DNA from: a phage
NCBI GenBank assembly: GCA_014630515.1
Contig: GCA_014630515.1_4091.1
Length of the DNA: 21,344 bases
Direction: 5' to 3' (one strand)
Part shown: piece by piece, positions 1,266 through 19,663 of the stretch
Position numbering within the stretch: the first letter of the stretch is position 1
Layout: every line of letters begins with the position of its first letter
Notes under the pieces: model-generated
What the model was told of the DNA's origin: nothing
Seen by the model: the letters and a program-made list of their open reading frames with translations, nothing else
The model's database searches: none
Position numbers and translations under genes: made by a program

Positions 1266-1319
1266 GATAAAACTCCTTAATTTAGGAGGGAGAACCATTT
1301 CCCCCTCTCTATGTAAAAC

Positions 1320-1347
1320 ATTATACTTGATTCTAAGTACAATGCAA
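1320..1347 (-). promoter_or_regulatory. early sigma70-type promoter with 5' stem-loop cassette
   Basis: minus strand TTGCAT, 16 bp, TATAAT; GC stem-loop ~1283-1308 then SD. Confidence 0.6.
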
Positions 1348-1354
1348 GTACTTT

Positions 1355-1681
1355 TTACATTTTAATTCCTGGATTCAGGTAACGATGTGATCCGTATTCT
1401 GGATCGGTTTCGGTCCAGTACTGTAAATCGATAGTACCTTTAGCGTTAATCTTGTCTACCAGCTTATTCATCTTACTGTAGACTACTTCGCTAGGGATGT
1501 AGTGTAATCCTTTATTATAGAAGTAGTGGTTAGCTTCACTATCGTTTAAGATATAGCGTGCACCGTTTGCGGTTTGTGCAACAATGAAAGAGTATTCTAC
1601 TTCCCGATCATTACCATCAACAGTAATGCGGTCGAAATTGGTACGGATGAAAGCTTTAACGATAGCGATTGAAGTACTCAT
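1355..1681 (-). CDS. hypothetical protein (108 aa)
   Basis: ATG 1679-1681; AGGAG SD 8 nt upstream; stop abuts -35 of next promoter. Confidence 0.7.
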   Translation of the reverse strand: MSTSIAIVKAFIRTNFDRITVDGNDREVEYSFIVAQTANGARYILNDSEANHYFYNKGLHYIPSEVVYSKMNKLVDKINAKGTIDLQYWTETDPEYGSHRYLNPGIKM

Positions 1682-1734
1682 GGTGAATCTCCTAACTTTG
1701 TGGGCCGTCGCACCATTGCCGCCCTACGAGATAC

Positions 1735-1763
1735 ATTATTGCAGTACTGATATACTTTGTCAA
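1735..1763 (-). promoter_or_regulatory. early sigma70-type promoter
   Basis: minus strand TTGACA, 17 bp, AATAAT (weaker -10); GC stem-loop in leader. Confidence 0.5.
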
Positions 1764-1781
1764 TACTTTTTCTATTAAAAT

Positions 1782-1997
1782 TTATTTACAGAACTGTAGC
1801 CCGACTGTGTTCGGATAGTACACACATCTTTCACGCTTACCGCTAAACGCAGATATCCAGGATAATTTGTATGCCACTGGTTCCGGTGCAAGAGGATTAT
1901 TTGAATAATCGAGAACTTTAACAATTAAACGGTCCCCAACATACCAGCCAGTTGACTCTTTGATACGGTCGATAATTTCTTGTTTGGTTAACGCCAT
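1782..1997 (-). CDS. hypothetical protein (71 aa)
   Basis: ATG 1995-1997 (MALTKQ); track start is a GTG at 2030 inside the leader stem-loop; SD weak. Confidence 0.55.
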   Translation of the reverse strand: MALTKQEIIDRIKESTGWYVGDRLIVKVLDYSNNPLAPEPVAYKLSWISAFSGKRERCVYYPNTVGLQFCK

Positions 1998-2052
1998 TTT
2001 ATATCTCGCTCTTTTGGAGGTGGGCTGCACTATTGCCGCCCTACGAGATACA

Positions 2053-2080
2053 TTATCTCAGTACTGATATACTTTGTCAA
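2053..2080 (-). promoter_or_regulatory. early sigma70-type promoter
   Basis: minus strand TTGACA, 16 bp, GATAAT. Confidence 0.55.
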
Positions 2081-2155
2081 TACTTTTTTGAAATAGTTTT
2101 GAGTACTGGCATTACATCCACCAGCAGATAGTTACTCACCGTTATTAACTATCTT

Positions 2156-2243
2156 ATAGATACTTCTCTGCACCCTGTGGGCTAGTTTTTGTCTATGCGT
2201 ATATAATAGCAAAGGGACTGACCGGAGTCAATCCCTTTTTTTT
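2156..2243 (-). repeat. repeat element A: conserved leader motif, embedded promoter, GC hairpin with T-run
   Basis: core GCACCCTGTGGGCT; TATATAATAGCAAAGGGACTGACCGGAGTCAATCCC hairpin followed by T8 on plus strand; minus-strand TTGACT, 17 bp, TATTAT overlaps the hairpin; near-identical copies at ~4075, ~7076, ~11806. Confidence 0.6.
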
Positions 2244-2254
2244 ATTCTTTTTTG

Positions 2255-2455
2255 TTAGATGATTCTCCAATCTTCTACCAGGATTTTAATATACCGTACC
2301 AGTGATTCGAGTGATTCCACTTCCCGATAATCGGTAGCCGTTTGCACTGTACAAGTACAGCCGATCAAGCCATTGCCAAGCTCTTTGATCTGTACATCGA
2401 TGCAGTTGGCTTTTGCTTCATTCAGTACTGCAACCAATTCGTTAGCGATTGACAT
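2255..2455 (-). CDS. hypothetical protein (66 aa)
   Basis: ATG 2453-2455; AGGAG SD 9 nt upstream; stop TAA 2255-2257. Confidence 0.7.
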   Translation of the reverse strand: MSIANELVAVLNEAKANCIDVQIKELGNGLIGCTCTVQTATDYREVESLESLVRYIKILVEDWRII

Positions 2456-2508
2456 AATGTTTTACTCCTAAAGGTGCGGGAGAACTATTCCCCCGCTCTA
2501 TGTAAAAC

Positions 2509-2536
2509 ATTATACATTATCTTGTAGTACTGTCAA
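2509..2536 (-). promoter_or_regulatory. early sigma70-type promoter with 5' stem-loop
   Basis: minus strand TTGACA, 16 bp, TATAAT; leader hairpin GCGGG..CCCGC. Confidence 0.6.
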
Positions 2537-2543
2537 ATAGTTT

Positions 2544-2801
2544 TTATGAAATATCTTCGATATAGTCGGCCCATGTCATTTGTTCAGTACTATCGAGTGC
2601 ACCAGGATTATTTGGATCAAACCATTCGCCATCCCCTAAGTACATTGCAGCCGCTACCGCTTTATAGCCATTATAGGCGTTATTCCACTGCATAGCACGA
2701 TAGATACGGCCTTTGATTGGTGTCTGTACTGGTAATGTTTTATGGTCTTCTACGTAGGCCATAGCTTGAGGATTTACCCGATATTGTGTGAACTGTTCCA
2801 T
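2544..2801 (-). CDS. hypothetical protein (85 aa)
   Basis: ATG 2799-2801 with GGGGA SD; track start 2858 lies inside the promoter. Confidence 0.65.
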   Translation of the reverse strand: MEQFTQYRVNPQAMAYVEDHKTLPVQTPIKGRIYRAMQWNNAYNGYKAVAAAMYLGDGEWFDPNNPGALDSTEQMTWADYIEDIS

Positions 2802-2826
2802 TATGTTTCCCCTTGTAGTTAGTAAA

Positions 2827-2858
2827 GTTATTACATCAGTACTATCACGCATTGTCAA
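2827..2858 (-). promoter_or_regulatory. early sigma70-type promoter
   Basis: minus strand TTGACA with TGTAAT/TAATAA -10 candidates 17-20 bp downstream. Confidence 0.45.
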
Positions 2859-2876
2859 TAGTACTGAAATAAAACT

Positions 2877-3101
2877 TTAGATTAGATTATTGATGCCGTT
2901 GATGGTAGACTCGCTTTCTTCTTTCTCCCATTGGCGGTAATACTTCCATGCTTCATGATAGGTGGCGATCAGTTCATCTTTTTGATCCTGAGTACATGCC
3001 AGTACTGAATCACTGTAAGCGGTGTTATAGATAGAATCAAATGATTTCTTCTCTTCTGCCAGGGTAGCTACTTCCCGCATCAGTTCATCAAAGTTAGCCA
3101 T
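2877..3101 (-). CDS. hypothetical protein (74 aa)
   Basis: ATG 3099-3101; AAGGAG SD 8 nt upstream. Confidence 0.7.
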   Translation of the reverse strand: MANFDELMREVATLAEEKKSFDSIYNTAYSDSVLACTQDQKDELIATYHEAWKYYRQWEKEESESTINGINNLI

Positions 3102-3149
3102 TTTAGTACTCCTTATTAGTGGGGGAGGATATCTCCCCCTATGTAAAAC

Positions 3150-3177
3150 ATTATACTTTGTTTTACTTACAATGCAA
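3150..3177 (-). promoter_or_regulatory. early sigma70-type promoter with 5' stem-loop
   Basis: minus strand TTGCAT, 16 bp, TATAAT; leader hairpin GGGGGAG-gatat-CTCCCCC. Confidence 0.6.
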
Positions 3178-3184
3178 GTACTTT

Positions 3185-3376
3185 TTAAATTTTATTTCCG
3201 ATATAGTCCGGCCTGTTCTTTTCGGTCATACGCTTAAGCATTTTTTGCATATGGCTTATTGCTTGTAGTGTATCCTCTTCCAGCGATGAATCAAGATAAT
3301 CAGGATCATTCTTCACCTTACAATGATTATGATAGCGTAGTACTGCCAGTACTTTTTTAACTTCTTCTACTGTCAT
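3185..3376 (-). CDS. hypothetical protein (63 aa)
   Basis: ATG 3374-3376 overlaps TGA of 3373..3645 (ATGA), consistent with translational coupling. Confidence 0.6.
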   Translation of the reverse strand: MTVEEVKKVLAVLRYHNHCKVKNDPDYLDSSLEEDTLQAISHMQKMLKRMTEKNRPDYIGNKI

Positions 3377-3645
3377 AATAAGTATTCCACTTCGTTTGCT
3401 TTCAGGTTAGTATCAATCATCAGTGGTTTTTTGTAGTCCACAAAACGATTAGTTTTCTCGATAGCGAAGCCCATATAATCCAGTTTGCTTACAGTACATT
3501 CATTCTTAAAAACTTCTTTCGCTGCATTGATGGCTGATTCAATTGATAACCGCCCATCTAAATTAATGTTACCAAATGATCCACCAGCAGAAGTAGGATT
3601 ACCGTTCATATCTTTAATAATCATAGTAGCGGAGTAGCTGGACAT
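3373..3645 (-). CDS. hypothetical protein (90 aa)
   Basis: ATG 3643-3645; AAGGA SD. Confidence 0.7.
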   Translation of the reverse strand: MSSYSATMIIKDMNGNPTSAGGSFGNINLDGRLSIESAINAAKEVFKNECTVSKLDYMGFAIEKTNRFVDYKKPLMIDTNLKANEVEYLL

Positions 3646-3698
3646 AATTTTGTTTCCTTTTATTGGTGGGGAGAGCTATTCTCCCCTTGATGTAAACT

Positions 3699-3726
3699 AT
3701 TATACAGTACTGATATACTTTGTCAA
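3699..3726 (-). promoter_or_regulatory. early sigma70-type promoter with 5' stem-loop
   Basis: minus strand TTGACA, 16 bp, TATAAT; leader hairpin GGGGAGA-gctat-TCTCCCC. Confidence 0.6.
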
Positions 3727-3729
3727 TAC

Positions 3730-3951
3730 TTAATTACGTTTAAAATGATATGTACCTTTATCATCCTGTACGCCCCATACTGATTTACCATCAACGCCAG
3801 TGATGCCGGATTGCAATTCAATATGGAAACCATTATTATCAACTACAAAAACTTTTTTATTTTCATCCCGATAACATTGATATTCTGAATCAACATTAAA
3901 GGCCGCATCATTCAGAAGATTGGAAGCGTAAATGCAAGTCATTGTAGTCAT
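3730..3951 (-). CDS. hypothetical protein (73 aa)
   Basis: ATG 3949-3951; AAGGA SD 8 nt upstream. Confidence 0.7.
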   Translation of the reverse strand: MTTMTCIYASNLLNDAAFNVDSEYQCYRDENKKVFVVDNNGFHIELQSGITGVDGKSVWGVQDDKGTYHFKRN

Positions 3952-4002
3952 GATTTTATTCCTTATTACCAGGGAGAACCATTTCCCCTCTCGATATAAA
4001 AC

Positions 4003-4030
4003 ATTATACTTGATTCTAAGTACAATGCAA
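4003..4030 (-). promoter_or_regulatory. early sigma70-type promoter
   Basis: minus strand TTGCAT, 16 bp, TATAAT. Confidence 0.6.
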
Positions 4031-4074
4031 GTACTTTTTTAAAATAGTTTTCAGTACTGAATACTTATATAATA

Positions 4075-4166
4075 GATACACTTCCGCACCCTATGGGTCA
4101 GTGAGTTATCTCTCAATGGATATATAATAGCAAAGGGACTGACCGGAGTCAATCCCTTTTTTAATC
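4075..4166 (-). repeat. repeat element B: conserved leader motif, embedded promoter, GC hairpin with T-run
   Basis: core GCACCCTATGGGTCAGTGAG; hairpin AAAGGGACTGACCGGAGTCAATCCC plus T6; minus-strand TTGACT, 17 bp, TATTAT (4124-4152). Confidence 0.6.
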
Positions 4167-4170
4167 TTTT

Positions 4171-4755
4171 TTATCGTGTTACCTTACTTGCTGCCACATC
4201 ACGCTTTTTATAGTACTGATTCCAGATATTGCTGGTTAAACCGTAATCAAGTACTTTAATAAGTCCATTACGATCCTGGCCGATATTCTGTTTTCTGATA
4301 TCTCTTATCGTTAGTGTTGATAATGTATCATCGACGTGTTGTAGTGCATCAGCAAAGCGGTGCTGGCGTTCAATGGCATTACGTTTAATATTGTACTTTA
4401 ATTCGTTGCACGCGTTAACGTGCTTCACACTGCCTTTGCTTGCAGTACTCAACCGATCCATAACGATAAACATATTATCAGGATCGCATAAATGCATATG
4501 CACCTTTGCAAAGTACTGTTTCAACTGAGGGCGGTCATAGTCTAAAAAATTCCATACCTTACATTCAGTTTCATTTTGTTCTACACCCGCATCACAATTC
4601 GCGACCTTAATCACTAACCGATCATTTAAAGCGAATACTATACGGGAAGAACCAGCACCGATGATCTCCAGGCCAGCTAACCGACAAGCTGAAAGGATCT
4701 CTTTGTTGGTTTCCATTTCTGACAGTGTACGGATGAATTTAGTATAATTACGCAT
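4171..4755 (-). CDS. protein-kinase-like protein (194 aa)
   Basis: ATG 4753-4755; AAGGAG SD 8 nt upstream; translation has glycine-rich IGAGSSR, lysine in VIKV, catalytic-loop-like IRDIRKQN and DFG-like VLDYG in the expected order. Confidence 0.6.
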   Translation of the reverse strand: MRNYTKFIRTLSEMETNKEILSACRLAGLEIIGAGSSRIVFALNDRLVIKVANCDAGVEQNETECKVWNFLDYDRPQLKQYFAKVHMHLCDPDNMFIVMDRLSTASKGSVKHVNACNELKYNIKRNAIERQHRFADALQHVDDTLSTLTIRDIRKQNIGQDRNGLIKVLDYGLTSNIWNQYYKKRDVAASKVTR

Positions 4756-4786
4756 TGCATGTTCTCCTTGAGTTAATGAAACTATA

Positions 4787-5029
4787 TTACAGTACTTTAC
4801 TATCAATGGCAACTACTTTTTTAACATTAACGGCGTGGATCACTTCCTTAGTGTTTTTAGTACTGAATACTTTCGCCGCTCCTTGTTCGACCGTGATGCG
4901 ATAGCGACCATTAACATCAACCATATTAATAAAGTCCGGCGTGCTGAATGGTGTTGTTTTACATTTCAGTACTGTTAACAGTTCCACCAGCGATGTAGTT
5001 TCTTTGATACGTTTTTCTAAAGTAATCAT
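4787..5029 (-). CDS. hypothetical protein (80 aa)
   Basis: ATG 5027-5029; GGGGGA SD; 31-nt gap to 4171..4755 without promoter, so co-transcribed; track start lies in leader. Confidence 0.65.
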   Translation of the reverse strand: MITLEKRIKETTSLVELLTVLKCKTTPFSTPDFINMVDVNGRYRITVEQGAAKVFSTKNTKEVIHAVNVKKVVAIDSKVL

Positions 5030-5057
5030 TTTGTTTCCCCCGTGTTGGTATATGTAC

Positions 5058-5086
5058 ATAGTACTAAAACATTTGAGTACTGTCAA
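5058..5086 (-). promoter_or_regulatory. sigma70-type promoter (TACTAT subtype)
   Basis: minus strand TTGACA, 17 bp, TACTAT; upstream stop codon abuts the -35. Confidence 0.5.
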
Positions 5087-5305
5087 TTAGATAATATTAT
5101 ATTTCTTAAAATAAAATGCGTCCTGTGTTGGTTGATACTCAATGCCATTGCCGTTATTGACTTCAACTAATAAACCTTTGTCAATAAGTTTTTTAATAGT
5201 ACGATACCCTTGTTGAAAATTGGTAAAATGTGAATCATTACGAAAGGTATAACCGTGCTTAACTGCTTCATCAATAGTTTTCTTTTCGATTTTAGATAAT
5301 TTCAT
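5087..5305 (-). CDS. hypothetical protein (72 aa)
   Basis: ATG 5303-5305; same promoter and leader as 4787..5029, which produces the identical artefactual N-termini in the track. Confidence 0.65.
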   Translation of the reverse strand: MKLSKIEKKTIDEAVKHGYTFRNDSHFTNFQQGYRTIKKLIDKGLLVEVNNGNGIEYQPTQDAFYFKKYNII

Positions 5306-5333
5306 TTTGTTTCTCCCGTGTTGGTATATGTAC

Positions 5334-5362
5334 ATAGTACTAAAACATTTGAGTACTGTCAA
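5334..5362 (-). promoter_or_regulatory. sigma70-type promoter (TACTAT subtype)
   Basis: minus strand TTGACA, 17 bp, TACTAT; duplicate of 5058-5086. Confidence 0.5.
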
Positions 5363-5613
5363 CGTGATATTAGTTTTATTTTCTTATTATATTGTTGGTG
5401 TTCATATAGGTTTATCTTTCCTGTGTTCTCTATTACTATTCTGTTGTTAGTGTCTACATCGATTACACGCAGTTTCCCGTTGCTTAACTTCCTTGGTAAT
5501 AGGTTACCATTAATAAACTCATTAGCAAGCTGTACGGCCTTTGTGATGATTCTCTGTGGTGCTTTATAGTGTACCCGTAAGATATTATCTTTATATAGTT
5601 GAACCTTAATCAT
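5359..5613 (-). CDS. hypothetical protein (84 aa)
   Basis: ATG 5611-5613; AGGAC SD; lies just downstream of the 5626-5652 terminator. Confidence 0.6.
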   Translation of the reverse strand: MIKVQLYKDNILRVHYKAPQRIITKAVQLANEFINGNLLPRKLSNGKLRVIDVDTNNRIVIENTGKINLYEHQQYNKKIKLISR

Positions 5614-5625
5614 TTTGTTTGTCCT

Positions 5626-5652
5626 ATAAAAAATGCGGGAACTGATCCCGCC
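5626..5652 (-). terminator. rho-independent terminator (minus strand)
   Basis: minus strand GCGGGA-tcagt-TCCCGC followed by ATTTTTTAT. Confidence 0.6.
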
Positions 5653-5674
5653 GTGTTGTTAGTACTGCAAGTTA

Positions 5675-6070
5675 TTAGATAACCTGGCGGCGTTTACTGA
5701 ATACTGTTACACGATTACCCTTACGGTCGTGTCGGATCTCTTTCTGGTTGCGAATCAGTTCACTTGGACGCTTAAGGTTTGCCAGGTGATCCGCGTGAGT
5801 CCATGCGGTGTGGTTTACCTGTACTTTGATATCAGAATCAGCGATAAATTCATCTTGTGCGTCAAGTATTGCCGCCAGCATATCCGCTCGTTTTAGTTCT
5901 GCTGCTGTCAGTACTGGCTCAGGTGAATTCACAATATCAGAGATTTCTTTGAACTGTACGGCCCAGCGTTGACCTTTCGGTGCATCTTTGCCCATGTCTT
6001 TAAATGCTGCTCCTTCCTCGCGTGCAACAATACGGGCAGCTTCACGGGTAGCGTAGAATTTAGTAATCAT
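5675..6070 (-). CDS. hypothetical protein (131 aa), paralog of 18533..18799
   Basis: ATG 6068-6070 with AGGA SD (ATG 6077-6079 also possible); shares ATRE.AR..AR..GA.FKDMG and HDRKGNRVTV blocks with 18533..18799. Confidence 0.65.
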   Translation of the reverse strand: MITKFYATREAARIVAREEGAAFKDMGKDAPKGQRWAVQFKEISDIVNSPEPVLTAAELKRADMLAAILDAQDEFIADSDIKVQVNHTAWTHADHLANLKRPSELIRNQKEIRHDRKGNRVTVFSKRRQVI

Positions 6071-6114
6071 GGTATACATCCTATTAGTTGAGTTAGTACT
6101 ACAAGTTAGAGTCT

Positions 6115-6143
6115 ATTATAAAGTACTATCTGGGCAATGTCAA
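6115..6143 (-). promoter_or_regulatory. early sigma70-type promoter
   Basis: minus strand TTGACA, 17 bp, TATAAT. Confidence 0.6.
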
Positions 6144-14637: not shown

Positions 14638-14865
14638 TTAATTTAATTCATCCAGGCAAAGGATACGTTCTACACCTAAATCAGTTAAGCTAATAGACGG
14701 CACTTGATAGGTTTCAATGTATTCTACACTAGCGTACTGACCAAACTCATCAACTGACCAGTTATACATTGCAAAATGTAGTTCCGCACCTTTCTTGTTA
14801 GTGATAACCGCTACTACTGCCGCATTGCCAACTGTACCAGATACGCGAGTGATTACGATAGCCAT
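14638..14865 (-). CDS. hypothetical protein (75 aa)
   Basis: ATG 14863-14865; AGGAA SD; track start 14922 lies in leader. Confidence 0.6.
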   Translation of the reverse strand: MAIVITRVSGTVGNAAVVAVITNKKGAELHFAMYNWSVDEFGQYASVEYIETYQVPSISLTDLGVERILCLDELN

Positions 14866-14920
14866 TGTTTTGATTCCTTTGATTTGGAAGGAGAACCGTT
14901 TCCCCCTCTCGATGTAAAAC

Positions 14921-14948
14921 ATTATACGCTAATCTCTTAATCGTGCAA
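14921..14948 (-). promoter_or_regulatory. early sigma70-type promoter with 5' stem-loop
   Basis: minus strand TTGCAC, 16 bp, TATAAT. Confidence 0.55.
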
Positions 14949-15102
14949 GTACTTTTTATTACTTTTTGCAAAATACTTTAAACGCCCTCAATCGCATTCT
15001 AACGACCTTAACGCCACCAGCTAGGGCGACGCATCAGATAATCAGTTTAATGCGTTAGAATCGATTCTAGGCGGTGCTAGTGGACTGGAATACTATAGAC
15101 AC

Positions 15103-15129
15103 AAAAAAGCCCACTGTTTAAGGTGGGCT
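15103..15129 (-). terminator. rho-independent terminator (minus strand)
   Basis: minus strand AGCCCAC-cttaaaca-GTGGGCT followed by TTTTTTGTGTC; downstream of 15151..15633. Confidence 0.7.
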
Positions 15130-15150
15130 AGTGATTCAGTACTTTAATTG

Positions 15151-15633
15151 TTATGCTTCAACTTTGCGATGAGCTTCGATCCATTCCTCGCGAGTCATAC
15201 CGCTTTCTTTGATAGCGTCCAGTACTACCGCAATGCAGTTACCGCGTACAGGAATCATATGTTCTTCCCCGTTATCAAGTACTACAGTAACACGTTCTTG
15301 AATCCATTTTTTAGGTTTAGATTCTGGCTTATCTTCACCATACTTAACCGCCAGGGCTTTATGTGCCATTTCTACAACTACTTCCAGATCCAATCCAGAC
15401 ACCGCCGCCTGGATACTTTCAATTGTTGCTTGCAGTTCGGCTTCACGGGCTTTTTTCTGTTCTTCCAGTTCTGCTACCTTTTTGGCTTGCAGTTCTTTAG
15501 CTTCACTGTACGCAATGTTAAAATTGTTGCGTACTGCTTTCATGGTATCGTTATCCAGGTCAGCCAGCAATTCAGCAGCAATAACAGTATCGTTTGAAAT
15601 CAGTGCTTTCAGGAATGATTTTACATTAGCCAT
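15151..15633 (-). CDS. hypothetical protein (160 aa), Ala/Glu/Lys-rich central region
   Basis: ATG 15631-15633; GAGGA SD 8 nt upstream; long ~120-nt leader. Confidence 0.7.
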   Translation of the reverse strand: MANVKSFLKALISNDTVIAAELLADLDNDTMKAVRNNFNIAYSEAKELQAKKVAELEEQKKAREAELQATIESIQAAVSGLDLEVVVEMAHKALAVKYGEDKPESKPKKWIQERVTVVLDNGEEHMIPVRGNCIAVVLDAIKESGMTREEWIEAHRKVEA

Positions 15634-15756
15634 TTTATAAATCCTCAATTAAAGTTTAGTTTACGTTTATTAGTGTATCAAAGTTTTATCGACGTGTCCA
15701 GTTTTTCGTTCGACTTACTGGCGGTCTACTTAGTGCTCCCCGTCTTGATGTAATAC

Positions 15757-15784
15757 ATTCTACGCCTTTTTGTGGTAATGTCAA
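15757..15784 (-). promoter_or_regulatory. sigma70-type promoter
   Basis: minus strand TTGACA, 16 bp, TAGAAT; followed by a diverged copy of the duplicated leader block (15665-15750). Confidence 0.5.
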
Positions 15785-15832
15785 CTACTTTTTTAAAACT
15801 ATTTTTAAAGTATGCAGTACTACGATAATACA

Positions 15833-15863
15833 AAAACAAAAAAGCCCACTGTATAAGTGGGCT
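15833..15863 (-). terminator. rho-independent terminator (minus strand)
   Basis: minus strand AGCCCAC-ttataca-GTGGGCT followed by TTTTTTGTTTTTG; same module as 15103-15129. Confidence 0.7.
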
Positions 15864-15880
15864 AGTGATTCAGTACTATA

Positions 15881-16180
15881 TTATAAACAATTAATTACGC
15901 CAGTGAATGTAACTTTCTCTGTATCCATTACAGTGACAGAACCGCGTTTACTTTTTGCATCGTAATAGATGGTCGTGCTACCCTGATCATCTTCTTCATG
16001 GTACGGGCCATTAGCAAACATTGCAGGGGCCAGTTCCAGGGATTTGGTAACGATCTCAGCCGTTTCCTCGTTAGTCATTGCAACAGTGCACTGAATGAAT
16101 TTTTCTTTCGGTACATCAACGGAAGCGTTAACAGCGAAAGAGGAAACAGATAAAGCCAGGGCGATGATTGCAGTTTTCAT
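15881..16180 (-). CDS. small secreted or periplasmic protein with N-terminal signal peptide (99 aa)
   Basis: ATG 16178-16180; N-terminus MKTAIIALALSVSSFAVNA has Lys then hydrophobic core then AxA-like site. Confidence 0.7.
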   Translation of the reverse strand: MKTAIIALALSVSSFAVNASVDVPKEKFIQCTVAMTNEETAEIVTKSLELAPAMFANGPYHEEDDQGSTTIYYDAKSKRGSVTVMDTEKVTFTGVINCL

Positions 16181-16230
16181 TTGTATATCCTTTGTTAGTA
16201 CTAGGGAGTATTCCCGATTAGATGTAAAAC

Positions 16231-16258
16231 ATTATACGCATTTAAAAACTATTATCAA
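16231..16258 (-). promoter_or_regulatory. early sigma70-type promoter
   Basis: minus strand TTGATA, 16 bp, TATAAT. Confidence 0.5.
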
Positions 16259-16293
16259 GTACTTTAATATAAAAGTATTTGAAAAAAAAAGTC

Positions 16294-16322
16294 TTGACAA
16301 CTGCATCCAGTACTGGCATAAT
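16294..16322 (+). promoter_or_regulatory. plus-strand sigma70-type promoter
   Basis: plus strand TTGACA, 17 bp, CATAAT; only clear plus-strand promoter inside the gene array. Confidence 0.5.
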
Positions 16323-16328
16323 ACTTAC

Positions 16329-16425
16329 ATAAAGACGAGATAGTCACTAACCCACAGGGTGCATAGATCCGTCTATTAAATGATTCAGTACTGCAAAATA
16401 AAGGGGATCGTTTGATCCCCTCTGT
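16329..16425 (+). ncRNA. candidate small RNA (plus strand) carrying the conserved leader motif
   Basis: starts ~7 nt after the 16294-16322 promoter, contains GAGATAGTCACTAACCCACAGGGTGC, ends at hairpin 16402-16421; no SD-preceded ORF. Confidence 0.3.
16393..16421 (-). terminator. rho-independent terminator (minus strand)
   Basis: minus strand AGGGGATC-aaac-GATCCCCT followed by TTTATTTTG; 5 nt after stop of 16427..16648. Confidence 0.65.
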
Positions 16426-16426
16426 A

Positions 16427-16648
16427 TTACTTAGTAAGATATAAACAAAAATCACCTTTCTTTGCTACGCCGCCAGTGTAACGCGATGAATAGTTAGAAA
16501 CGTCTTGCACTTCTGCAATGACGAGCGTATCATCATTTATTTCGTCGCAAAAACATACTGCGGGATCTTCTACGCCAATATTGTCAGCATGTGCCCGCAT
16601 AGATTTAACCAGTGCTTCAAGCTGGGAAAGAGTAGTGATATTAGCCAT
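16427..16648 (-). CDS. hypothetical protein (73 aa)
   Basis: ATG 16646-16648; AAGGAG SD 8 nt upstream. Confidence 0.7.
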   Translation of the reverse strand: MANITTLSQLEALVKSMRAHADNIGVEDPAVCFCDEINDDTLVIAEVQDVSNYSSRYTGGVAKKGDFCLYLTK

Positions 16649-16699
16649 TGTAAAACTCCTTATTAGTGGGGAGAACCATTTCTCCCCTTGATGTAAACT

Positions 16700-16727
16700 A
16701 TTATACAGTACTGGAAACTAATTGCAA
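16700..16727 (-). promoter_or_regulatory. early sigma70-type promoter with 5' stem-loop
   Basis: minus strand TTGCAA, 16 bp, TATAAT. Confidence 0.6.
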
Positions 16728-16735
16728 GTACTTTT

Positions 16736-16939
16736 TTAATTTAATTGCTTTAAAACATAATCAAAGACACCACGCACATCATTGATCATCGCCTGGCGGT
16801 TAGCAGGTAACGCATCAGGATCGCCACTATCCCAGGCATTAATGAAGCCACCTAAATCATGGAATACTTTATTCCGTAACCCGATCAACTGCAATTCTTT
16901 TTCTTCAAGCTCTTTGATACGTTTAATTAAATCACTCAT
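16736..16939 (-). CDS. hypothetical protein (67 aa)
   Basis: ATG 16937-16939; GAGGA SD overlaps stop of 16957..17241; start region GAGGATTATCTAATGAGT is duplicated at 17241. Confidence 0.6.
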   Translation of the reverse strand: MSDLIKRIKELEEKELQLIGLRNKVFHDLGGFINAWDSGDPDALPANRQAMINDVRGVFDYVLKQLN

Positions 16940-16956
16940 TAGATAATCCTCAGTAC

Positions 16957-17241
16957 TCAATTGTAAGATCCGCAACGGTCGCAGTAGTGCCCGTCCTCGT
17001 CATCTTCTACCACTTGCCCGATGAAATGATCTACTTTCGCTTTCAGGTTATTATAATCGTTTTCTACTTCCTTTAAACGCTTCTGGTAGTATTCCAGTGC
17101 TTTAAGATATGCCGCATCAGTAGTTTTCTCCTGCATAGCTAAATTCATGCCACGCGTTTCATCGTACAGCCAAAAACCATCGGTGCACTCACTTATAGAC
17201 AATGACTTGCTTAACACATTGTACTTTATTACTTTACTCAT
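16957..17241 (-). CDS. hypothetical protein (94 aa)
   Basis: ATG 17239-17241; GAGGA SD; C-terminal CDRCG. Confidence 0.7.
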   Translation of the reverse strand: MSKVIKYNVLSKSLSISECTDGFWLYDETRGMNLAMQEKTTDAAYLKALEYYQKRLKEVENDYNNLKAKVDHFIGQVVEDDEDGHYCDRCGSYN

Positions 17242-17291
17242 TAGATAATCCTCATTAAAGGCGGGAACTATTCCCGCTCTCGATATAAAGT

Positions 17292-17319
17292 ATTATACGT
17301 TAATCTAATTACTTTGCAA
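17292..17319 (-). promoter_or_regulatory. early sigma70-type promoter with 5' stem-loop
   Basis: minus strand TTGCAA, 16 bp, TATAAT. Confidence 0.6.
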
Positions 17320-17326
17320 GTACTTT

Positions 17327-17563
17327 TTAGTGCTTTTTATAAAACATCTCAGCGGTGATATTTTTACCCGTTGGTTGTACTTTATCCAGGATCTTTTGGT
17401 GTGCACTACGCCCGAAAGAATAAGAACCGTAAACCGTTAGCCAGTAGTCGCCATTTTGGTTTACATGTACCGCACAATAAGGAACGCCCCGCGAATCGTC
17501 ACCAATGAAGTGTGATACTGTACCCGTTACGTTTGGCGTTGTAGTTTTGATTTGTTCGATCAT
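17327..17563 (-). CDS. hypothetical protein (78 aa)
   Basis: ATG 17561-17563; AGGAG SD 8 nt upstream; track start lies in leader. Confidence 0.6.
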   Translation of the reverse strand: MIEQIKTTTPNVTGTVSHFIGDDSRGVPYCAVHVNQNGDYWLTVYGSYSFGRSAHQKILDKVQPTGKNITAEMFYKKH

Positions 17564-17621
17564 TTCTCTTACTCCTGGGATATAGGCGGGAACCATTCCC
17601 CGCCATTGATTCAGTACTGAA

Positions 17622-18233
17622 TTAATATTCGATAGATTCTACTACATCGTCGATAACGTTAAATTGATATTCGTTACCCTCAATCAGTCCTACAATGTTT
17701 TCAGTAGTAAACTGGTCTTCATAAGCATTTTCTAAATCACGGTACAGCTTACAAGATAATTCTCGGATAGTATCAGTCAGTAAGTTTTCCAGATCCTCAG
17801 CCAATGCAGCCTGTTTTACAGTTAAATCAGTGTAGCGAGTATCAACGCAACCGCCTACCGTGTTTTCGTGAGCGTAGCGTGATTGGGAACGTTCTACACT
17901 CATTTCCAAATCATCTTCGTTCAATAGGTGACGGATGGAACGATATTTCGTTAACGCCTTAACCTTGCGTAAAAACTTCTCAGCGTCAACGTGGTCAGTA
18001 CTGATTGATGCACCGTCACCTTGCGACCAAAAACCACTGTATTGCAATTCAGCTTCATCTATGCCGTATTCTGGCAGTACTGTTTCTTTATAGTATTCCA
18101 GTACTGATTCAGCAAAGAAATTATCCTCACTTGCACGTTCCCGATCCCGAACCAGTTCGATAGCCGCCGCTTGTTGTTCTGCGTTCAGTTCAGAAAAATC
18201 CATAACGAAAGTAGTAGTAGTGATAGTTTTCAT
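17622..18233 (-). CDS. acidic protein (203 aa)
   Basis: ATG 18231-18233; GAGGG SD; strongly Asp/Glu-rich; largest gene in the window. Confidence 0.7.
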   Translation of the reverse strand: MKTITTTTFVMDFSELNAEQQAAAIELVRDRERASEDNFFAESVLEYYKETVLPEYGIDEAELQYSGFWSQGDGASISTDHVDAEKFLRKVKALTKYRSIRHLLNEDDLEMSVERSQSRYAHENTVGGCVDTRYTDLTVKQAALAEDLENLLTDTIRELSCKLYRDLENAYEDQFTTENIVGLIEGNEYQFNVIDDVVESIEY

Positions 18234-18265
18234 TTTGTAACCCTCATTCAGTAGTTGATGTAAGT

Positions 18266-18293
18266 ATTATACGCTTTTAAAAACAATTGTCAA
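18266..18293 (-). promoter_or_regulatory. early sigma70-type promoter
   Basis: minus strand TTGACA, 16 bp, TATAAT. Confidence 0.6.
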
Positions 18294-18390
18294 ACTATTT
18301 TATCAGGGGAGTTTTTCGTGTGCCTTACTCCTGGGCTACTTAACGGGAAGTTACTTATTTCGTTCCCCGTCCTGATGTAAAACATTATAC
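18288..18390 (-). repeat. 103-bp duplicated block, copy 2
   Basis: identical to 6908-7010; lies between two tandem promoters upstream of 17622..18233. Confidence 0.6.
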
Positions 18391-18411
18391 GCCTTTAAAC
18401 ATAGTTTGCAA
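18384..18411 (-). promoter_or_regulatory. early sigma70-type promoter
   Basis: minus strand TTGCAA, 16 bp, TATAAT. Confidence 0.55.
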
Positions 18412-18444
18412 GTACTTTTTGAAAATAGTTTTTATCTCTTTCAT

Positions 18445-18526
18445 ATAGATACATTCCCGCACCCTATGGGCTATCGCCTTGTGTCCGGCTTGTAAGTATT
18501 ATCTCACTAAGCCGGATAACGGTCAA
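18445..18526 (-). repeat. repeat element G: promoter with conserved leader motif and flanking inverted repeat
   Basis: minus strand TTGACC, 17 bp, GATAAT (18498-18526); inverted repeat CCGGCTT/AAGCCGG brackets the -10; leader has CCCATAGGGTGCGGGAATG. Confidence 0.5.
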
Positions 18527-18532
18527 GTACTT

Positions 18533-18799
18533 TTATTCAAGTACTGCAATCTTTTTAGTACTGTACACAGTAACGCGGTTGCCCTTGCGGTCGTGCTTTA
18601 TTTCTACCACGCGACGCGATACACTATCAGGACGCTTTAAAGCAGATAGCCAGTACTGAATTGATCGGGCTGTACTTTGCTTTACTACGGCCCAACGTTT
18701 ACCACGTTCAGATTGTACGCCCATATCTTTAAACGTTGCCCCGTCCTGGCGTGCTGCAATCCGAGCTAGTTCACGCGTCGCAAAATATGTAATAGTCAT
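18533..18799 (-). CDS. hypothetical protein (88 aa), paralog of 5675..6070
   Basis: ATG 18797-18799; track start is a TTG in the promoter. Confidence 0.6.
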   Translation of the reverse strand: MTITYFATRELARIAARQDGATFKDMGVQSERGKRWAVVKQSTARSIQYWLSALKRPDSVSRRVVEIKHDRKGNRVTVYSTKKIAVLE

Positions 18800-18836
18800 G
18801 CTGTTACCCCTATCGTTGATGTACAAAAAGAACTTT

Positions 18837-18865
18837 ATTATAAAGTACTATCATTTTTTGCGATA
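18837..18865 (-). promoter_or_regulatory. sigma70-type promoter (weak -35)
   Basis: minus strand TATAAT with poor -35; context resembles the 6115-6143 promoter of the paralog. Confidence 0.4.
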
Positions 18866-18884
18866 GTACTTTAAATAAATTCTA

Positions 18885-19124
18885 TTACATTCCAACCATC
18901 GCCGCACGGATCGCAGTAGTGCTATACTTAAAGCCGTCTGGAGTTTTATCTTGTCCAGTCTGTTCTAAAAATAGCATCATATGACGGGCCGCATCATTGC
19001 GATTAGTATTGGCGGCAATAAAGTCCTGGGCCAACCGGTACAATGACTCATCGTTATTAATCCAAAGGCTTACATTCCAATGAGTTTTGTTTTTGTGACC
19101 TAAGAACATTTTTGATTTAGCCAT
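18885..19124 (-). CDS. hypothetical protein (79 aa)
   Basis: ATG 19122-19124; GAGGA SD. Confidence 0.7.
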   Translation of the reverse strand: MAKSKMFLGHKNKTHWNVSLWINNDESLYRLAQDFIAANTNRNDAARHMMLFLEQTGQDKTPDGFKYSTTAIRAAMVGM

Positions 19125-19174
19125 TTTTTAATCCTCTTATATAGTGGGGAACTATTCCCCACCTGATGTAAAAC

Positions 19175-19202
19175 ATTATACGCTTTTAAACTTAGTTTGC
19201 AA
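19175..19202 (-). promoter_or_regulatory. early sigma70-type promoter with 5' stem-loop
   Basis: minus strand TTGCAA, 16 bp, TATAAT; leader hairpin GGGGAA-ctatt-CCCC. Confidence 0.6.
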
Positions 19203-19216
19203 GTACTTTATTAAAC

Positions 19217-19579
19217 TTATTCGTAAATTTTGCCACTGTCAGCCCATACCAGGAAACGAGGCATATTATCCCATGCATCTTGTTTTAAATTTAAACCGTG
19301 TAATACTTCTGTACTTTCCATTCCTGGTACTGGTTTACTATACACCGCGAAATTTTCGCCCATATACTGATAAACCATCGTTAAATCACTGGCGATCATC
19401 TTATGGATCATCGCATCAAGCATCACGGTAGCGGCGTATTGTTCACGCTTAAGCGGCAACATTGTAATAAGTTCCCGATAAGCTGAAATGTGAATTTTTA
19501 CCGTTTCAGCCGGAAGACCTTTCATCTCTTCACGGAAGTTGACCAGGTTAGCAATAATTTTATTGATTTGGGTCGCCAT
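19217..19579 (-). CDS. hypothetical protein (120 aa)
   Basis: ATG 19577-19579; track start 19636 lies in promoter and leader; first gene downstream of the ORF-poor region. Confidence 0.6.
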   Translation of the reverse strand: MATQINKIIANLVNFREEMKGLPAETVKIHISAYRELITMLPLKREQYAATVMLDAMIHKMIASDLTMVYQYMGENFAVYSKPVPGMESTEVLHGLNLKQDAWDNMPRFLVWADSGKIYE

Positions 19580-19635
19580 CGTATTAATCTCTTTTAAAGT
19601 GTAGCGGGAAGTGTTCCCGCTCTCGATGTAAAACA

Positions 19636-19663
19636 TTATACGCCTTTAAACATAGTTTGCAAG
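19636..19663 (-). promoter_or_regulatory. early sigma70-type promoter with 5' stem-loop
   Basis: minus strand TTGCAA, 16 bp, TATAAT. Confidence 0.6.

Follow-up and report, generated by a model that had tools for sequence, protein, structure and literature searches.

The window, that is, the whole stretch of 21,344 nucleotides analysed here, is the direct terminal repeat (DTR, ~21 kb) of an Asteriusvirus (121Q/PBECO4-type) jumbo coliphage, as revealed by alignment to the Asteriusvirus fEgEco12. The 20,993 bp DTR of fEgEco12 was defined experimentally and verified with PhageTerm and restriction digests (PMC13070987). Position 1 of fEgEco12 corresponds to position 21272 of the window and the end of its DTR to position ~434. 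Some 55 small genes, nearly all without a known function, lie in the repeat and are read inward from the physical end of the genome; the gene starting at 8844 encodes a GNAT acetyltransferase and is preceded by a hairpin-free (class B) cassette. That the array constitutes the direct terminal repeat had been missed in the first-pass annotation. The genome being that of an Asteriusvirus jumbo phage, a T4-like host genome of the Straboviridae was ruled out.

Intergenic DNA between positions 1347 and 19662 harbours 46 sigma70-type promoter-like sites on the minus strand, of the form TTGACA/TTGCAA/TTGCAT, 16-17 nt, TATAAT, close to the "about 45" cassettes counted earlier. Counting those that match the consensus at 10 or more of 12 positions, there were 40 on the minus strand as against 6 on the plus strand, while 100 dinucleotide shuffles yielded 5.8 ± 2.3 (maximum 11). 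The cassettes had been taken to make up nearly all intergenic DNA; they are real, but their share is 3947 of 5097 intergenic bases (77%). In 37 of 53 genes the ATG has a -10 element at most 70 nt away, and the upstream stop codon, correctly described as often abutting the next -35, is at most 15 nt away from it in 23 of 45 cases. Most genes are equipped with a cassette of their own, running from an A-rich UP-like tract containing the previous stop codon, through a near-consensus host sigma70 promoter, the conserved initial transcribed sequence ACATCRAG and, in half of the cassettes, a hairpin, to a linker rich in A/U, a strong SD and the start codon ATG. Conservation extends beyond the hexamers to AAAAAGTAC upstream, an invariant G at -13 and TTTACAT 3' of the -10. 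Among orthologous cassettes the -35 and -10 changed at 1.3% and 0.6% of positions, as compared to 10.6% for spacers and 4.8% for coding sequence. Searchable literature on Asteriusvirus, this phage included, yielded no transcription start-site or expression data. The relative PA5oct relies on the RNA polymerase of its host, and promoters of the TTGAC/TATAATA type are present at its transcription start sites; in another relative, phage CBB, RpoD-like promoters are concentrated among short ORFs and on the terminal repeat.

Cassette classes and the 5' hairpin

The 46 promoters comprise 23 followed by a GC hairpin (class A; 21 hairpins strong, 2-3 weak), 14 free of any hairpin (class B), three in which an 84-nt structured leader is followed by a second promoter (class A') and six belonging to a separate small unit (class C), with a conserved CCCAYMGGGTGC core in 6/6 and the -35 inside a terminator hairpin in 4/6 (Table 1). 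The original observation was thus real but over-generalised, since a hairpin had been assigned to almost every gap.

Table 1. Promoter cassettes of the terminal repeat, from the highest coordinate down (free energies in kcal/mol)
Unit	Coordinates	Strand	Promoter	Hairpin or other feature	Start
DTR extent	434..21272	.		aligned to fEgEco12 20,993..1 (PMC13070987); encloses entire cassette array	
Class A	19580..19676	-	TTGCAA-16-TATAAT	19621..19603 (8 bp, -11.4), SD	ATG 19579
Class A	19125..19216	-	TTGCAA-16-TATAAT	19163..19143 (9 bp, -13.2)	ATG 19124
Class B	18800..18878	-	ATCGCA-16-TATAAT	degenerate -35	ATG 18799
Class C	18438..18540	-	TTGACC-17-GATAAT	then core CCCATAGGGTG at 18470	
Class A'	18295..18425	-	TTGCAA-16-TATAAT	84-nt three-helix leader 18378..18295	
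Class B	18234..18307	-	TTGACA-16-TATAAT	12/12	ATG 18233
Half cassette	17564..17621	-	none	GGCGGGGAAtggTTCCCGCC, SD	ATG 17563
Class A	17242..17333	-	TTGCAA-16-TATAAT	17277..17261 (-9.8)	ATG 17241
Class A	16649..16741	-	TTGCAA-16-TATAAT	16687..16668 GGGGAGAAatggTTCTCCCC; top model match, 74.7 bits	ATG 16648
Class A	16181..16272	-	TTGATA-16-TATAAT	weak (-3.9)	ATG 16180
Class A'	15634..15798	-	TTGACA-16-TAGAAT	diverged structured-leader copy	ATG 15633
Class A	14866..14962	-	TTGCAC-16-TATAAT	14908..14887 (-10.0)	ATG 14865
Class A	14553..14643	-	TTGCAA-16-TATAAT	14589..14570 (-12.4)	ATG 14552
Class B	14326..14403	-	TTGACA-17-CATAAT	2 AGTACT sites	ATG 14325
Class B	14022..14107	-	TTGACA-17-CATAAT		ATG 14021
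Class A	12822..12917	-	TTGCAA-16-TATAAT	12861..12845; -35 overlaps end of upstream gene	
Class A	12497..12589	-	TTGCAA-16-TATAAT	12535..12516	ATG 12496
Class A	12269..12360	-	TTGCAA-16-TATAAT	12305..12287	ATG 12268
Class C	11773..11896	-	TTGACT, TATTAT	terminator hairpin 11889..11862 contains -35; core 11827	ATG 11772
Class A	11490..11583	-	TTGCAT-16-TATAAT	11527..11511	ATG 11489
Class B	10958..11032	-	TAGACA-17-TATAAT		ATG 10957
Class A	10528..10619	-	TTGACA-16-TATAAT	10565..10546; promoter 12/12	ATG 10527
Class B	10224..10309	-	TTGACA-17-CATAAT		ATG 10223
Class B	9945..10030	-	TTGACA-16-TATAAT		ATG 9944
Class C	9405..9507	-	TTGACA-17-CATAAT	core 9436	
Class B	9313..9391	-	TTGATC-16-TATAAT		GTG 9312
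Class B	8845..8915	-	TTGACA-16-TATAAT	GNAT acetyltransferase gene	ATG 8844
Class A, decayed	8410..8498	-	TTGCAT-17-TATAGT	weak	ATG 8409
Class A	7788..7879	-	TTGACA-16-TATAAT	7825..7806	ATG 7787
Class A	7489..7581	-	TTGCAC-16-TATAAT	7526..7510	ATG 7488
Class C	7062..7164	-	TATTAT (-10)	terminator hairpin 7157..7130 contains -35; core 7100	
Class A'	6917..7045	-	TTGCAT-16-TATAAT	84-nt leader, identical to 18378..18295 copy	
Class B	6853..6927	-	TTGACA-16-TATAAT		ATG 6852
Class A	6490..6587	-	TTGACA-16-TATAAT	6531..6513	ATG 6489
Class B	6071..6157	-	TTGACA-17-TATAAT		ATG 6070
Half cassette	5614..5674	-	TTGCAG remnant	5651..5635 with T-run (terminator-like)	ATG 5613
Class B	5306..5376	-	TTGACA-17-TACTAT		ATG 5305
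Class B	5030..5100	-	TTGACA-17-TACTAT	near-duplicate of cassette at 5362	ATG 5029
Class C	4064..4166	-		terminator hairpin 4159..4132 contains -35; core 4097	
Class A	3952..4044	-	TTGCAT-16-TATAAT	3988..3973	ATG 3951
Class A	3646..3740	-	TTGACA-16-TATAAT	3686..3668	ATG 3645
Class A	3102..3191	-	TTGCAT-16-TATAAT	3139..3121; extra gene flanked by same cassette in relatives	ATG 3101
Class B	2802..2872	-	TTGACA-17-TGTAAT		ATG 2801
Class A	2456..2550	-	TTGACA-16-TATAAT	2496..2476	ATG 2455
Class C	2143..2245	-		terminator hairpin 2238..2211 contains -35; core 2181	
Class A variant	1998..2094	-	TTGACA-17-GATAAT	GGGCGGCAatagTGCAGCCC ~2041..2022; leader MFE -19.5	ATG 1997
Class A variant	1682..1777	-	TTGACA-17-AATAAT	~1724..1702 (-13.1)	ATG 1681
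Class A	1266..1361	-	TTGCAT-16-TATAAT	1307..1286	ATG 1265

The hairpin starts 9-14 nt 3' of the -10 (mode 13) rather than at the "~7 nt" given earlier, and therefore lies inside the 5' UTR. In 73 distinct cassettes from the window and its relatives, the start was 13 nt after the -10 in 36 and mostly within the same 9-14 nt, with an 8-bp stem and a loop of 3-4 nt. Folding bore out the stability of the leaders, 23 of 46 reaching -10 kcal/mol or lower, as compared to 8% for windows in coding sequence and 14% for dinucleotide shuffles. Between orthologues the stems changed at 3.9% and the loops at 15%. On the model alignment, double changes occupied 41 cells versus 18.9 in shuffles, and the covariation score was 0.299 versus 0.235, a value attained by none of 500 shuffles. 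Purines, however, make up 90% of the 5' arm and pyrimidines 90% of the 3' arm, and slid stem registers also pair (87-91%); a part of the pairing signal is therefore composition. Twelve single stem changes between orthologues disrupt a pair.

Stem-loops of the same G-run/C-run type occur in the promoter-early stem-loops (PeSLs) of the T4-like phages RB49/phi1, PST/T4 and nt-1/KVP40 (Arbiol 2010, PMC2839356; Comeau 2014, PMC4122927), and one from RB49, in which no U-run is obvious, was reported to terminate transcription effectively when assayed with lacZ. The hairpins could by analogy be attenuators or terminators that damp upstream read-through as well as their own output and so set the level of each gene, and insulation would be useful among 46 tandem promoters. 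We consider this unlikely, since a hairpin kept at a constant spacing 3' of its own promoter obeys a constraint unneeded for terminating incoming transcription, and the 8 nt 3' of the stem hold only 1.45 T and no T-run, while the same DNA has canonical T-run terminators at 16420, 15863, 15129, 9793 and 5651 and in the four class C hairpins holding a -35.

Equally doubtful is a role of the GGGGA..TCCCC hairpin and/or the palindrome AGTACT as transcriptional or translational operators, through which a protein encoded by the phage or delivered with the virion would turn the entire early array on or off. The biased arms are conserved beyond structural need, and AGTACT, which is 11-19-fold enriched across the clade, occupies one of two fixed positions (the -35 edge or just 5' of the -10) in 34 of 46 promoters. 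Even within genes it is selected at the DNA level, with 46 sites versus 9.3 ± 2.8 in synonymous-codon shuffles. In the repeat of Klebsiella phage Muenster, where the same anatomy is seen throughout, AGTACT is enriched too and lies at the apex of several hairpins; yet the Muenster hairpins keep their position with quite different stems, which argues for structure and not sequence recognition. AGTACT is also common far outside promoters (~3.3 per kb) and is therefore not a promoter-specific operator, and no candidate binding protein was identified.

Repeat family and rearrangements

Alignment of the cassettes established their family relationship: 28 pairs of 16-nt spacers were at least 75% identical, as compared to 0.06 expected. 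The spacers form nine clusters in all, within which the three subtypes noted at first are present. Because shared spacers precede unrelated genes, the cassettes are true repeats; there are only two paralogue families among the array genes. One cassette used as query found 815 places in 74 phage records, and phages from other subfamilies gave whole-cassette alignments at 80-92%. Five genes of the window recur in the Vequintavirinae phage A73 at 75-92% identity, in changed order and each with cassettes. A covariance model of the cassette gave 119 matches in Asteriusvirus loci and A73, and none in the 100-135 kb region of 121Q.

Comparison with three relatives revealed 27 distinct rearrangements. 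Cassettes account for 22% of the region and for 35 of the 54 endpoints (p = 2e-11). When only non-coding breakpoints are counted, cassettes hold 24 of 28, near the 76% expected, so the enrichment mainly reflects intergenic versus coding sequence. In 13 indels, 9-97 bp of identical cassette sequence was repeated on both flanks. That the cassettes are not mobile at all, but arose by convergent selection for promoter strength plus local gene duplication, with illegitimate indels filtered to fall between genes, is highly improbable: strong phage early promoters do have an extended consensus in common (UP/-35/TGn/-10 in T4; Hinton 2010, PMC2988021), cassettes are not significantly over-represented among non-coding breakpoints and a few neighbouring genes are duplicated (starts 5305 and 5029), but spacers are not read base by base by sigma70 and are nevertheless shared before unrelated genes, and neither the repeat-flanked indels nor the entire cassettes common to different subfamilies fit such an origin.

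Proposed role of the cassettes

Taken as a whole, the array is probably a set of early-expression cassettes in a takeover region, with the hairpin as 5' stabiliser or insulator and with gene swapping driven by recombination; the half of the promoters devoid of a hairpin counts against this explanation. Host RNA polymerase would fire all the promoters immediately once the DNA enters, and an immediate-early host-takeover programme would result, comparable to those of the SPO1 and T5 terminal repeats. The hairpin, with its 8-bp purine-arm/pyrimidine-arm stem, would begin ~5 nt into the predicted transcript and, along with a ribosome bound just downstream, could cap the 5' end of each short mRNA, protecting it from 5'-end-dependent decay and insulating translation from any upstream sequence. 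Unrelated genes are separated by the same cassette of 50-100 bp, so that homologous recombination among the copies may delete, insert or swap gene-plus-cassette units, as the PeSL model holds, both inside the clade and in exchange with unrelated coliphages. The repeated modules thus look like crossover points for gene swapping between phages.

Comparison with known systems

In phage SPO1 a module of 26 genes (37-60) belongs to a terminal region of 12.4 kb, which is likewise full of small early genes with strong host-type promoters for each group and strong ribosome sites. The analogy is one of layout only, without sequence relationship: SPO1 genes are arranged in operons, whereas nearly every gene here has its own promoter, and repeat-mediated shuffling and 5' hairpins are absent from the SPO1 description.

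The 5' UTR of ompA and the T7 phi10 leader (GGGAGACC..GGUUUCCC) are 5' stem-loop stabilisers of mRNA, and resemble the cassettes in having a GC hairpin near the 5' end, with an A/U-rich linker and then a strong SD behind it. Here the unpaired 5' tail is predicted to be longer (~4-7 nt), which is at or beyond the limit for ompA-type protection, and a stabilising effect is a prediction.

T4 early promoters and those of the array alike serve host RNA polymerase, are very strong and show conservation outside the two hexamers, but in the array TG lies at -14/-13, next to the hexamer, and not at -15/-14, and the -35 is TTGACA, TTGCAA or TTGCAT.

The first-pass annotation had likened the cassettes to PeSL-type mobile modules of T4-type phages, which holds for architecture and cassette-bounded indels and fails for stem-loop position, homology with RB49 and type of host genome. 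In both systems an A-rich tract enclosing the stop codon of the preceding gene is combined with a near-consensus sigma70 promoter, a stem-loop of the G-run/C-run type and an SD with its ATG; copies are densely packed in a hyperplastic region where the genes are small and their functions unknown, and close relatives differ by repeat-bounded single-gene indels; and the upstream context AAAAAGTnnTTGACA as well as the initial transcribed CATCAAGACGAGATA and AGGAGAATCAAAATG are common to the two. Class C hairpins holding a -35, four in number, match the PeSL sub-class with a stem over the -35. The genome of RB49, however, read directly, has its stem-loops between the -35 and -10 or over them, whereas here the hairpin spans ~+6 to +25 of the predicted transcript; AGTACT occurs within promoters here and not once in 40 kb of RB49; and here an Asteriusvirus jumbo phage is the host genome, with the array filling its direct terminal repeat. 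BLAST against RB49 found no significant sequence similarity (best E-value 0.039) and the covariance model had no match in 40 kb of its PeSL-rich region, so membership in the RB49 PeSL sequence family was rejected. The cassettes are best read as PeSL-like early-gene expression modules, a variant of those known from T4-like phages.

Cassette array and terminal repeat

Our own scan and a consensus tool agreed on 46 sigma70-type promoters, all intergenic and on the minus strand, between 1347 and 19662. At 10 or more of 12 consensus matches, the minus strand had 40 sites and the plus strand 6, as compared to 5.8 ± 2.3 (maximum 11) in dinucleotide shuffles. Cassettes held 77% of the intergenic bases. 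The -10 element was at most 70 nt from the ATG in 37 of 53 genes, an upstream stop codon was at most 15 nt from the -35 element in 23 of 45 cases, the tract upstream of the -35 was AT-rich (consensus AAAAAGTAC), and the Shine-Dalgarno (SD) sequence and start codon formed the 3' end of the cassette. The first-pass annotation had proposed a near-ubiquitous promoter/hairpin/SD module; the promoters and their share of the intergenic DNA bear this out, but the G-run/C-run stem-loop is carried by only 23 of the 46 cassettes and is missing in 14, the array being a mixture of classes A, A', B and C. The three sequence subtypes quoted there are real and had been read on the plus strand.

The G directly before TATAAT is invariant. 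The initial transcribed sequence (+1 to about +10) is conserved over all classes and phages: classes A and C have ACATCAAG(G/A), class B has TTATCAAGAC, and the promoter-early stem-loops (PeSLs) of the T4-like phage RB49 have CATCAAGACGAGATA or CATCGAAACGA. Both may reflect promoter-escape or 5'-end requirements.

Cassette classes, non-coding units and terminators in the window, with class C promoters of phage Muenster
Feature	Position or number	Strand	Description
Class A cassettes	23 copies	minus	promoter, GC hairpin, SD; 21 hairpins strong
Class A' cassettes	3 copies	minus	strong promoter directly followed by 84-nt structured leader, then second promoter
Class B cassettes	14 copies	minus	promoter and SD, without hairpin
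Class C cassettes	6 copies	minus	distinct small unit; 12-bp terminator-like hairpin holding the -35 in four
Half cassettes	17621..17564 and 5674..5614	minus	hairpin without promoter
84-nt leader	18378..18295 and 7000..6917	minus	identical copies
84-nt leader	15752..15668	minus	diverged copy
Class C cores	18470, 11827, 9436, 7100, 4097, 2181	minus	
Class C cores	16351 and 20170	plus	
Class C promoters, Muenster terminal repeat (L014)	4731, 6178, 9840, 12997, 14557		
Canonical T-run terminators	16420, 15863, 15129, 9793, 5651, 845		class C hairpins in addition
Near-identical terminator modules	15880..15840 and 15150..15105	minus	AGTACTGAATCACTAGCCCAC..GTGGGCTTTTTTG; 3' of genes 16180 and 15633

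By megablast the window matched Asteriusvirus jumbo coliphages, with BAU.Micro_ELP-22 as the top record (87% coverage, 92% identity). Coverage by 121Q, PBECO4, WPEC5, BF17 and fEgEco12 was 33-74%, split into 7-20 pieces each; thus, the region is strongly mosaic. A direct terminal repeat (DTR) of 20,993 bp has been determined for fEgEco12 by PhageTerm and restriction digests (PMC13070987), and the predicted DTR of Sharanji is 20,668 bp. Window 434-21272 aligned with fEgEco12 DTR positions 20,993-1, which equates the cassette array with the DTR: window 21272 is fEgEco12 position 1, the physical genome end, and window ~434, within the 249-nt gap 585..337, is its inner boundary. The same region is annotated as terminal repeat in two database records (H51, H72). 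On these alignments, the window is in essence a single copy of the ~21-kb DTR. Starting at the physical genome end, cassette genes transcribed inward follow ~1.6 kb of non-coding DNA, and past the DTR lie tightly packed, overlapping genes without cassettes; a search of 121Q 100-135 kb with R1, our covariance model of the class A leader, gave no matches.

Just outside the left end of the window, in three loci that extend past it (L001 1-3330, L003 1-4330, L013 21091-23000), successive genes of ~70 aa, whose stop and start codons overlap, have no cassettes and almost no AGTACT, an organisation sharply unlike that of the repeat. At the other end, the non-coding stretch 19700..21272 contains an array with a period of 8 bp at 20370-20521, made of units such as CGTCTAGC, CATCCAGC and CGTTTAGC. 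Promoters on the plus strand lie there at 19899 and 20240, along with ~15 extended AGTACT palindromes and, on the minus strand, a strong promoter at 20907 that precedes a long hairpin. Signals for packaging, end recognition or an origin may be located in this stretch.

Plausible genes were confined to the minus strand (55 curated, 29 to 203 aa, from 19579 to 139). Pfam and PHROGs searches recognised a GNAT acetyltransferase, a DksA/TraR zinc finger and a weak kinase-like match; the other genes mostly belonged to PHROGs or families without known function. Small paralogous genes were 14021/6489 (both matching phrog_6246) and 18799/6070. Genes 10223 and 9312 have a common YVVSYG motif, with 14325 possibly in the same group, and genes 5305 and 5029 are a tandem pair with near-identical cassettes.

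We consider it rather probable that host RNA polymerase would drive these promoters immediate-early, that the repeated cassette sequence would mediate shuffling of genes, and that the hairpin at the 5' end of the transcript would act as a cap, stabilising the mRNA and insulating its translation; early timing, start sites and hairpin function are what we infer from the sequence. Infection by the related phage PA5oct depends on host RNA polymerase, with TTGAC/TATAATA promoters at transcription start sites, and phage CBB has RpoD-like promoters among short ORFs and on its terminal repeat. Our literature search found nothing on promoter cassettes of Asteriusvirus or Vequintavirinae, on transcriptomes of these phages or by way of functional data, and the genome papers found gave no description of regulatory DNA in 121Q/RaK2-group jumbo phages.

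Non-coding units and the AGTACT palindrome

Conservation of the 84-nt leader of class A' is 88-100% over 45 phage records; among them are Vequintavirinae (A73, W70, A7_1) and Justusliebigvirus (muut, outra), in which it is unannotated. The leader has a three-helix fold, independently predicted by RNAalifold, in which one pair covaries as U-A/C-G/A-U, and it had no match in Rfam. Candidate roles for the RNA are leader, small RNA and cis-acting antitermination element. The DTR of PA5oct is reported to contain two non-coding RNAs with high expression (PMC7318152). Class C is a family of short promoter-driven non-coding units, eight in the window and five in Klebsiella phage Muenster, and is thus conserved between Asteriusvirus and Alcyoneusvirus. 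An invariant core, CCCAYMGGGTGC, lies ~28 nt past the -10 and is followed by GTATCTATAG, and in several copies the -35 lies within the 12-bp terminator-like hairpin (AAAGGGATTGACTCCGGTCAGTCCCTTT). An upstream mini-hairpin with varied stems (GACG/CGTC, TGAG/CTCA, ACCAC/GTGGT and others) was present in 11 of 13 copies, a count equalled by the best shuffles, so that it is suggestive only. The literature search found no publication on the 84-nt leader or the class C unit, or on the enrichment of AGTACT.

The window has 133 AGTACT sites where 6.9 were expected, a 19-fold over-representation, usually in the context CAGTACTG, and as ATTCAGTACTGAAT in non-coding DNA. Within genes there were 46 sites, in all three frames, as compared to 9.3 ± 2.8 in shuffles that preserve the protein sequence and the codon usage. 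Outside the DTR of 121Q, the density of AGTACT was 3.3 per kb (11-fold; the next most enriched palindrome was 2.6-fold), and the Muenster DTR had 124 sites in 18 kb, several at hairpin apexes. It was nearly absent from the packed genes just past the DTR (L003 1-4 kb), and 40 kb of RB49 had zero sites. AGTACT took a fixed position in 34 of 46 promoters: it directly adjoined the -35 or ended one base short of the -10 hexamer.

A tentative and rather doubtful reading is that the cassettes go beyond recombining promoters and would be what can be seen of a system, for regulation or recombination, that is specific to the RaK2/121Q clade of jumbo phages and keyed to AGTACT (extended form ATTCAGTACTGAAT). 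The hexamer would be kept at ~3-6 per kb genome-wide by DNA-level selection as the site of a putative phage protein (a global DNA-binding regulator, or a nicking/recombination or modification enzyme) coordinating early-promoter firing/shut-off or driving shuffling, with the 84-nt leader and the CCCAYMGGGTGC unit as further components. A rival reading, in which the hairpin or AGTACT is a protein operator, seems improbable to us; the fixed promoter position fits it, and AGTACT also occurs far outside promoters. The AGTACT signal and the two conserved non-coding RNAs are brought to light here as testable questions.

Anatomy and conservation of the class A hairpin

The cap function in the reading that we favour concerns class A, whose consensus is AAAAAGTAC-TTGCAA/TTGACA-N16-G-TATAAT-gtTTTACATcgaG-GGGGAGAA-loop-TTCTCCCC-(A/U-rich)-AGGAG-N-ATG. 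Hairpins were counted in 73 distinct copies from the window and its relatives. Since the MAFFT leader alignment set hairpins with 3-nt and 4-nt loops in differing registers, RNAfold-anchored counts and a covariance model were used. A stem of 8 pairs encloses a loop of 3-4 nt; purines make up 90% of the 5' arm and pyrimidines 90% of the 3' arm. In 36 of the 73 copies the stem begins 13 nt past the -10, the range being mostly 9-14 nt. Sigma70 transcripts start ~7 nt past the -10, which would place the hairpin at about positions +6 to +25 of the transcript made from the same cassette, with ~4-7 unpaired 5' nt counted from the predicted start site (stem 13 nt past the -10).

The 8 nt 3' of the stem contained a mean of 1.45 T, and for want of a T-run an intrinsic (Rho-independent) terminator was ruled out. 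Attenuation, described together with transcription termination for the PeSL stem-loop (Arbiol 2010), is a role we hold unlikely for this hairpin; canonical T-run terminators are located elsewhere in the window. Whole-window Rfam (permissive thresholds) and tRNA scans gave nothing relevant; the sole Rfam matches were chance-level Trp_leader hits, accounted for by the two near-identical terminator modules.

Mean folding energy over all 46 leaders was modestly lower than in controls (-8.2 vs -5.6 to -6.0 kcal/mol), the small gap being due to the half without hairpin, so that the fraction at -10 or lower is the useful contrast. Evidence of selection came from substitution and covariation. In orthologous cassettes of three relatives, substitution rates were 0.6% in the -10, 1.3% in the -35, 3.9% in the stem, 4.8% in coding sequence, 6.2% in the discriminator, 10.6% in both the spacer and the rest of the leader, and 15% in the loop; the promoter hexamers were thus 8-17x more conserved than spacers. 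Stem changes between orthologues comprised 5 compensated doubles, 6 pair-keeping singles and 12 pair-breaking changes. R1, built from 21 window leaders, retrieved 119 copies. In its alignment 88% of cells were pairing, double-change cells numbered 41 vs 18.9 in shuffles, and the covariation score was 0.299 vs 0.235 in shuffles (0/500 as high); since one arm is a homopurine and the other a homopyrimidine run, slid registers pair too. A strand test on the stems gave 101 G.T vs 47 A.C cells; the skew has the expected sign, but it is weak, and the model alignment biases it. The DTR of Muenster (Alcyoneusvirus) has the same layout with other stem sequences at the same position (GGGGATAC/GTATCCCC, GGGAATGAAT/ATTCATTCCC, AGAGATTCCAG/CTGGAATCTCT, GGGGCAA/TTGCCCC), none followed by a T-run. 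These differing stems are the strongest argument that the hairpin may have a structural role.

Cassette exchange and comparison with known systems

Promoter spacers fell into nine clusters, and 28 pairs of 16-nt spacers were at least 75% identical vs 0.06 expected, so the family relationship suspected at first reading was borne out; members of a cluster stand before unrelated genes. To judge by their spacers, the cassettes are therefore a repeat family and go beyond a consensus. Pure convergence or duplication is very improbable, and gene duplication as the source of the repeats was rejected because BLASTP found only two paralogue pairs or families among the window genes. One 95-nt cassette used as query matched 815 places in 74 phage records, with 10-34 per Asteriusvirus genome (the higher counts arise because those records include both DTR copies). 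Matches extended to RaK2, K64-1, Munch, 7t3 and Eneladusvirus and, at 80-84% identity, to 140-150-kb Vequintavirinae and Justusliebigvirus phages.

Recombination between repeats, the second element of our preferred reading, was surveyed in chained BLAST alignments vs ELP-22, WPEC5 and 121Q, in which 27 distinct events were counted (insertions, deletions or replacements), most of them affecting one gene. Rearrangement endpoints lay inside cassettes in 35 of 54 cases, cassettes being 22% of the region (p = 2e-11), although the excess within non-coding DNA alone was not significant (24/28 vs 76% expected). In 13 indels the flanking alignments overlapped by 9-97 bp, i.e. the same cassette sequence lay on both sides of the unit, as would be expected if repeats had recombined homologously; for example, window 3141-3186 matches both 5815-5860 and 6151-6196 of L001, around one extra 264-bp gene. 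In the 142-kb Vequintavirinae phage A73 (L004, 72.4-77.5 kb), homologues of genes 14865, 14552, 10527, 19124 and 10957 are adjacent and reordered, at 75-92% DNA identity and with a cassette before each. This indicates that gene-plus-cassette modules have probably been exchanged between unrelated coliphage groups.

Jumbo phages of the 121Q/RaK2 group are under development for therapy, and >80% of their genes are without known function. The ~55 terminal-repeat genes are a probable immediate-early host-takeover set and are therefore prime candidates in a search for anti-defence proteins and for products that inhibit host processes. The cassette itself, with a strong promoter, 5' hairpin and SD, would be a compact, natural and portable expression module. 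By its terminal-repeat location and by the strong host-type promoters and ribosome sites of its many small genes, the window resembles SPO1's host-takeover module, and the layout of the T5 pre-early region is parallel to its array.

A likeness to the mobile cassettes of some T4-type phages had been proposed at first reading. RB49 PeSLs and the window cassettes have in common an A-rich tract with an upstream stop codon, a sigma70 promoter, a G-run/C-run stem (in 23 of the 46 window cassettes), and SD and ATG, besides the short strings AAAAAGTnnTTGACA, CATCAAGACGAGATA and AGGAGAATCAAAATG; both occupy plastic (hyperplastic) regions with indels or replacements between close relatives at the elements. 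Recombination between PeSL copies yields mini-circles (Arbiol 2010). However, no significant sequence relation to RB49/phi1 PeSLs was found (best BLAST E-value 0.039; R1 had 0 matches in 40 kb of RB49). PeSLs belong to T4-like (Straboviridae) genomes, whereas the closest records of the window are Asteriusvirus. A stem-loop upstream of, in or over the promoter, before the transcription start, is a PeSL feature (Arbiol 2010), and in RB49 the stems are placed over the promoter hexamers or between them (e.g. TTGACAGGGGATCaccGATCCCCTATACT); in contrast, class A stems lie in the 5' UTR, 9-14 nt past the -10, and PeSL-like placement in the window was limited to four class C hairpins over the -35. Thus, the layout and the indels at the elements agree with the T4-type proposal, and membership in that family does not hold. 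As modules for recombination and expression the cassettes would function like PeSLs, yet they are a family of their own, in which the stem-loop has another position. The PeSL concept, recombination at repeated regulatory cassettes, would thereby extend from T4-like to jumbo phages, and also to exchange between phage subfamilies (Asteriusvirus, Vequintavirinae).
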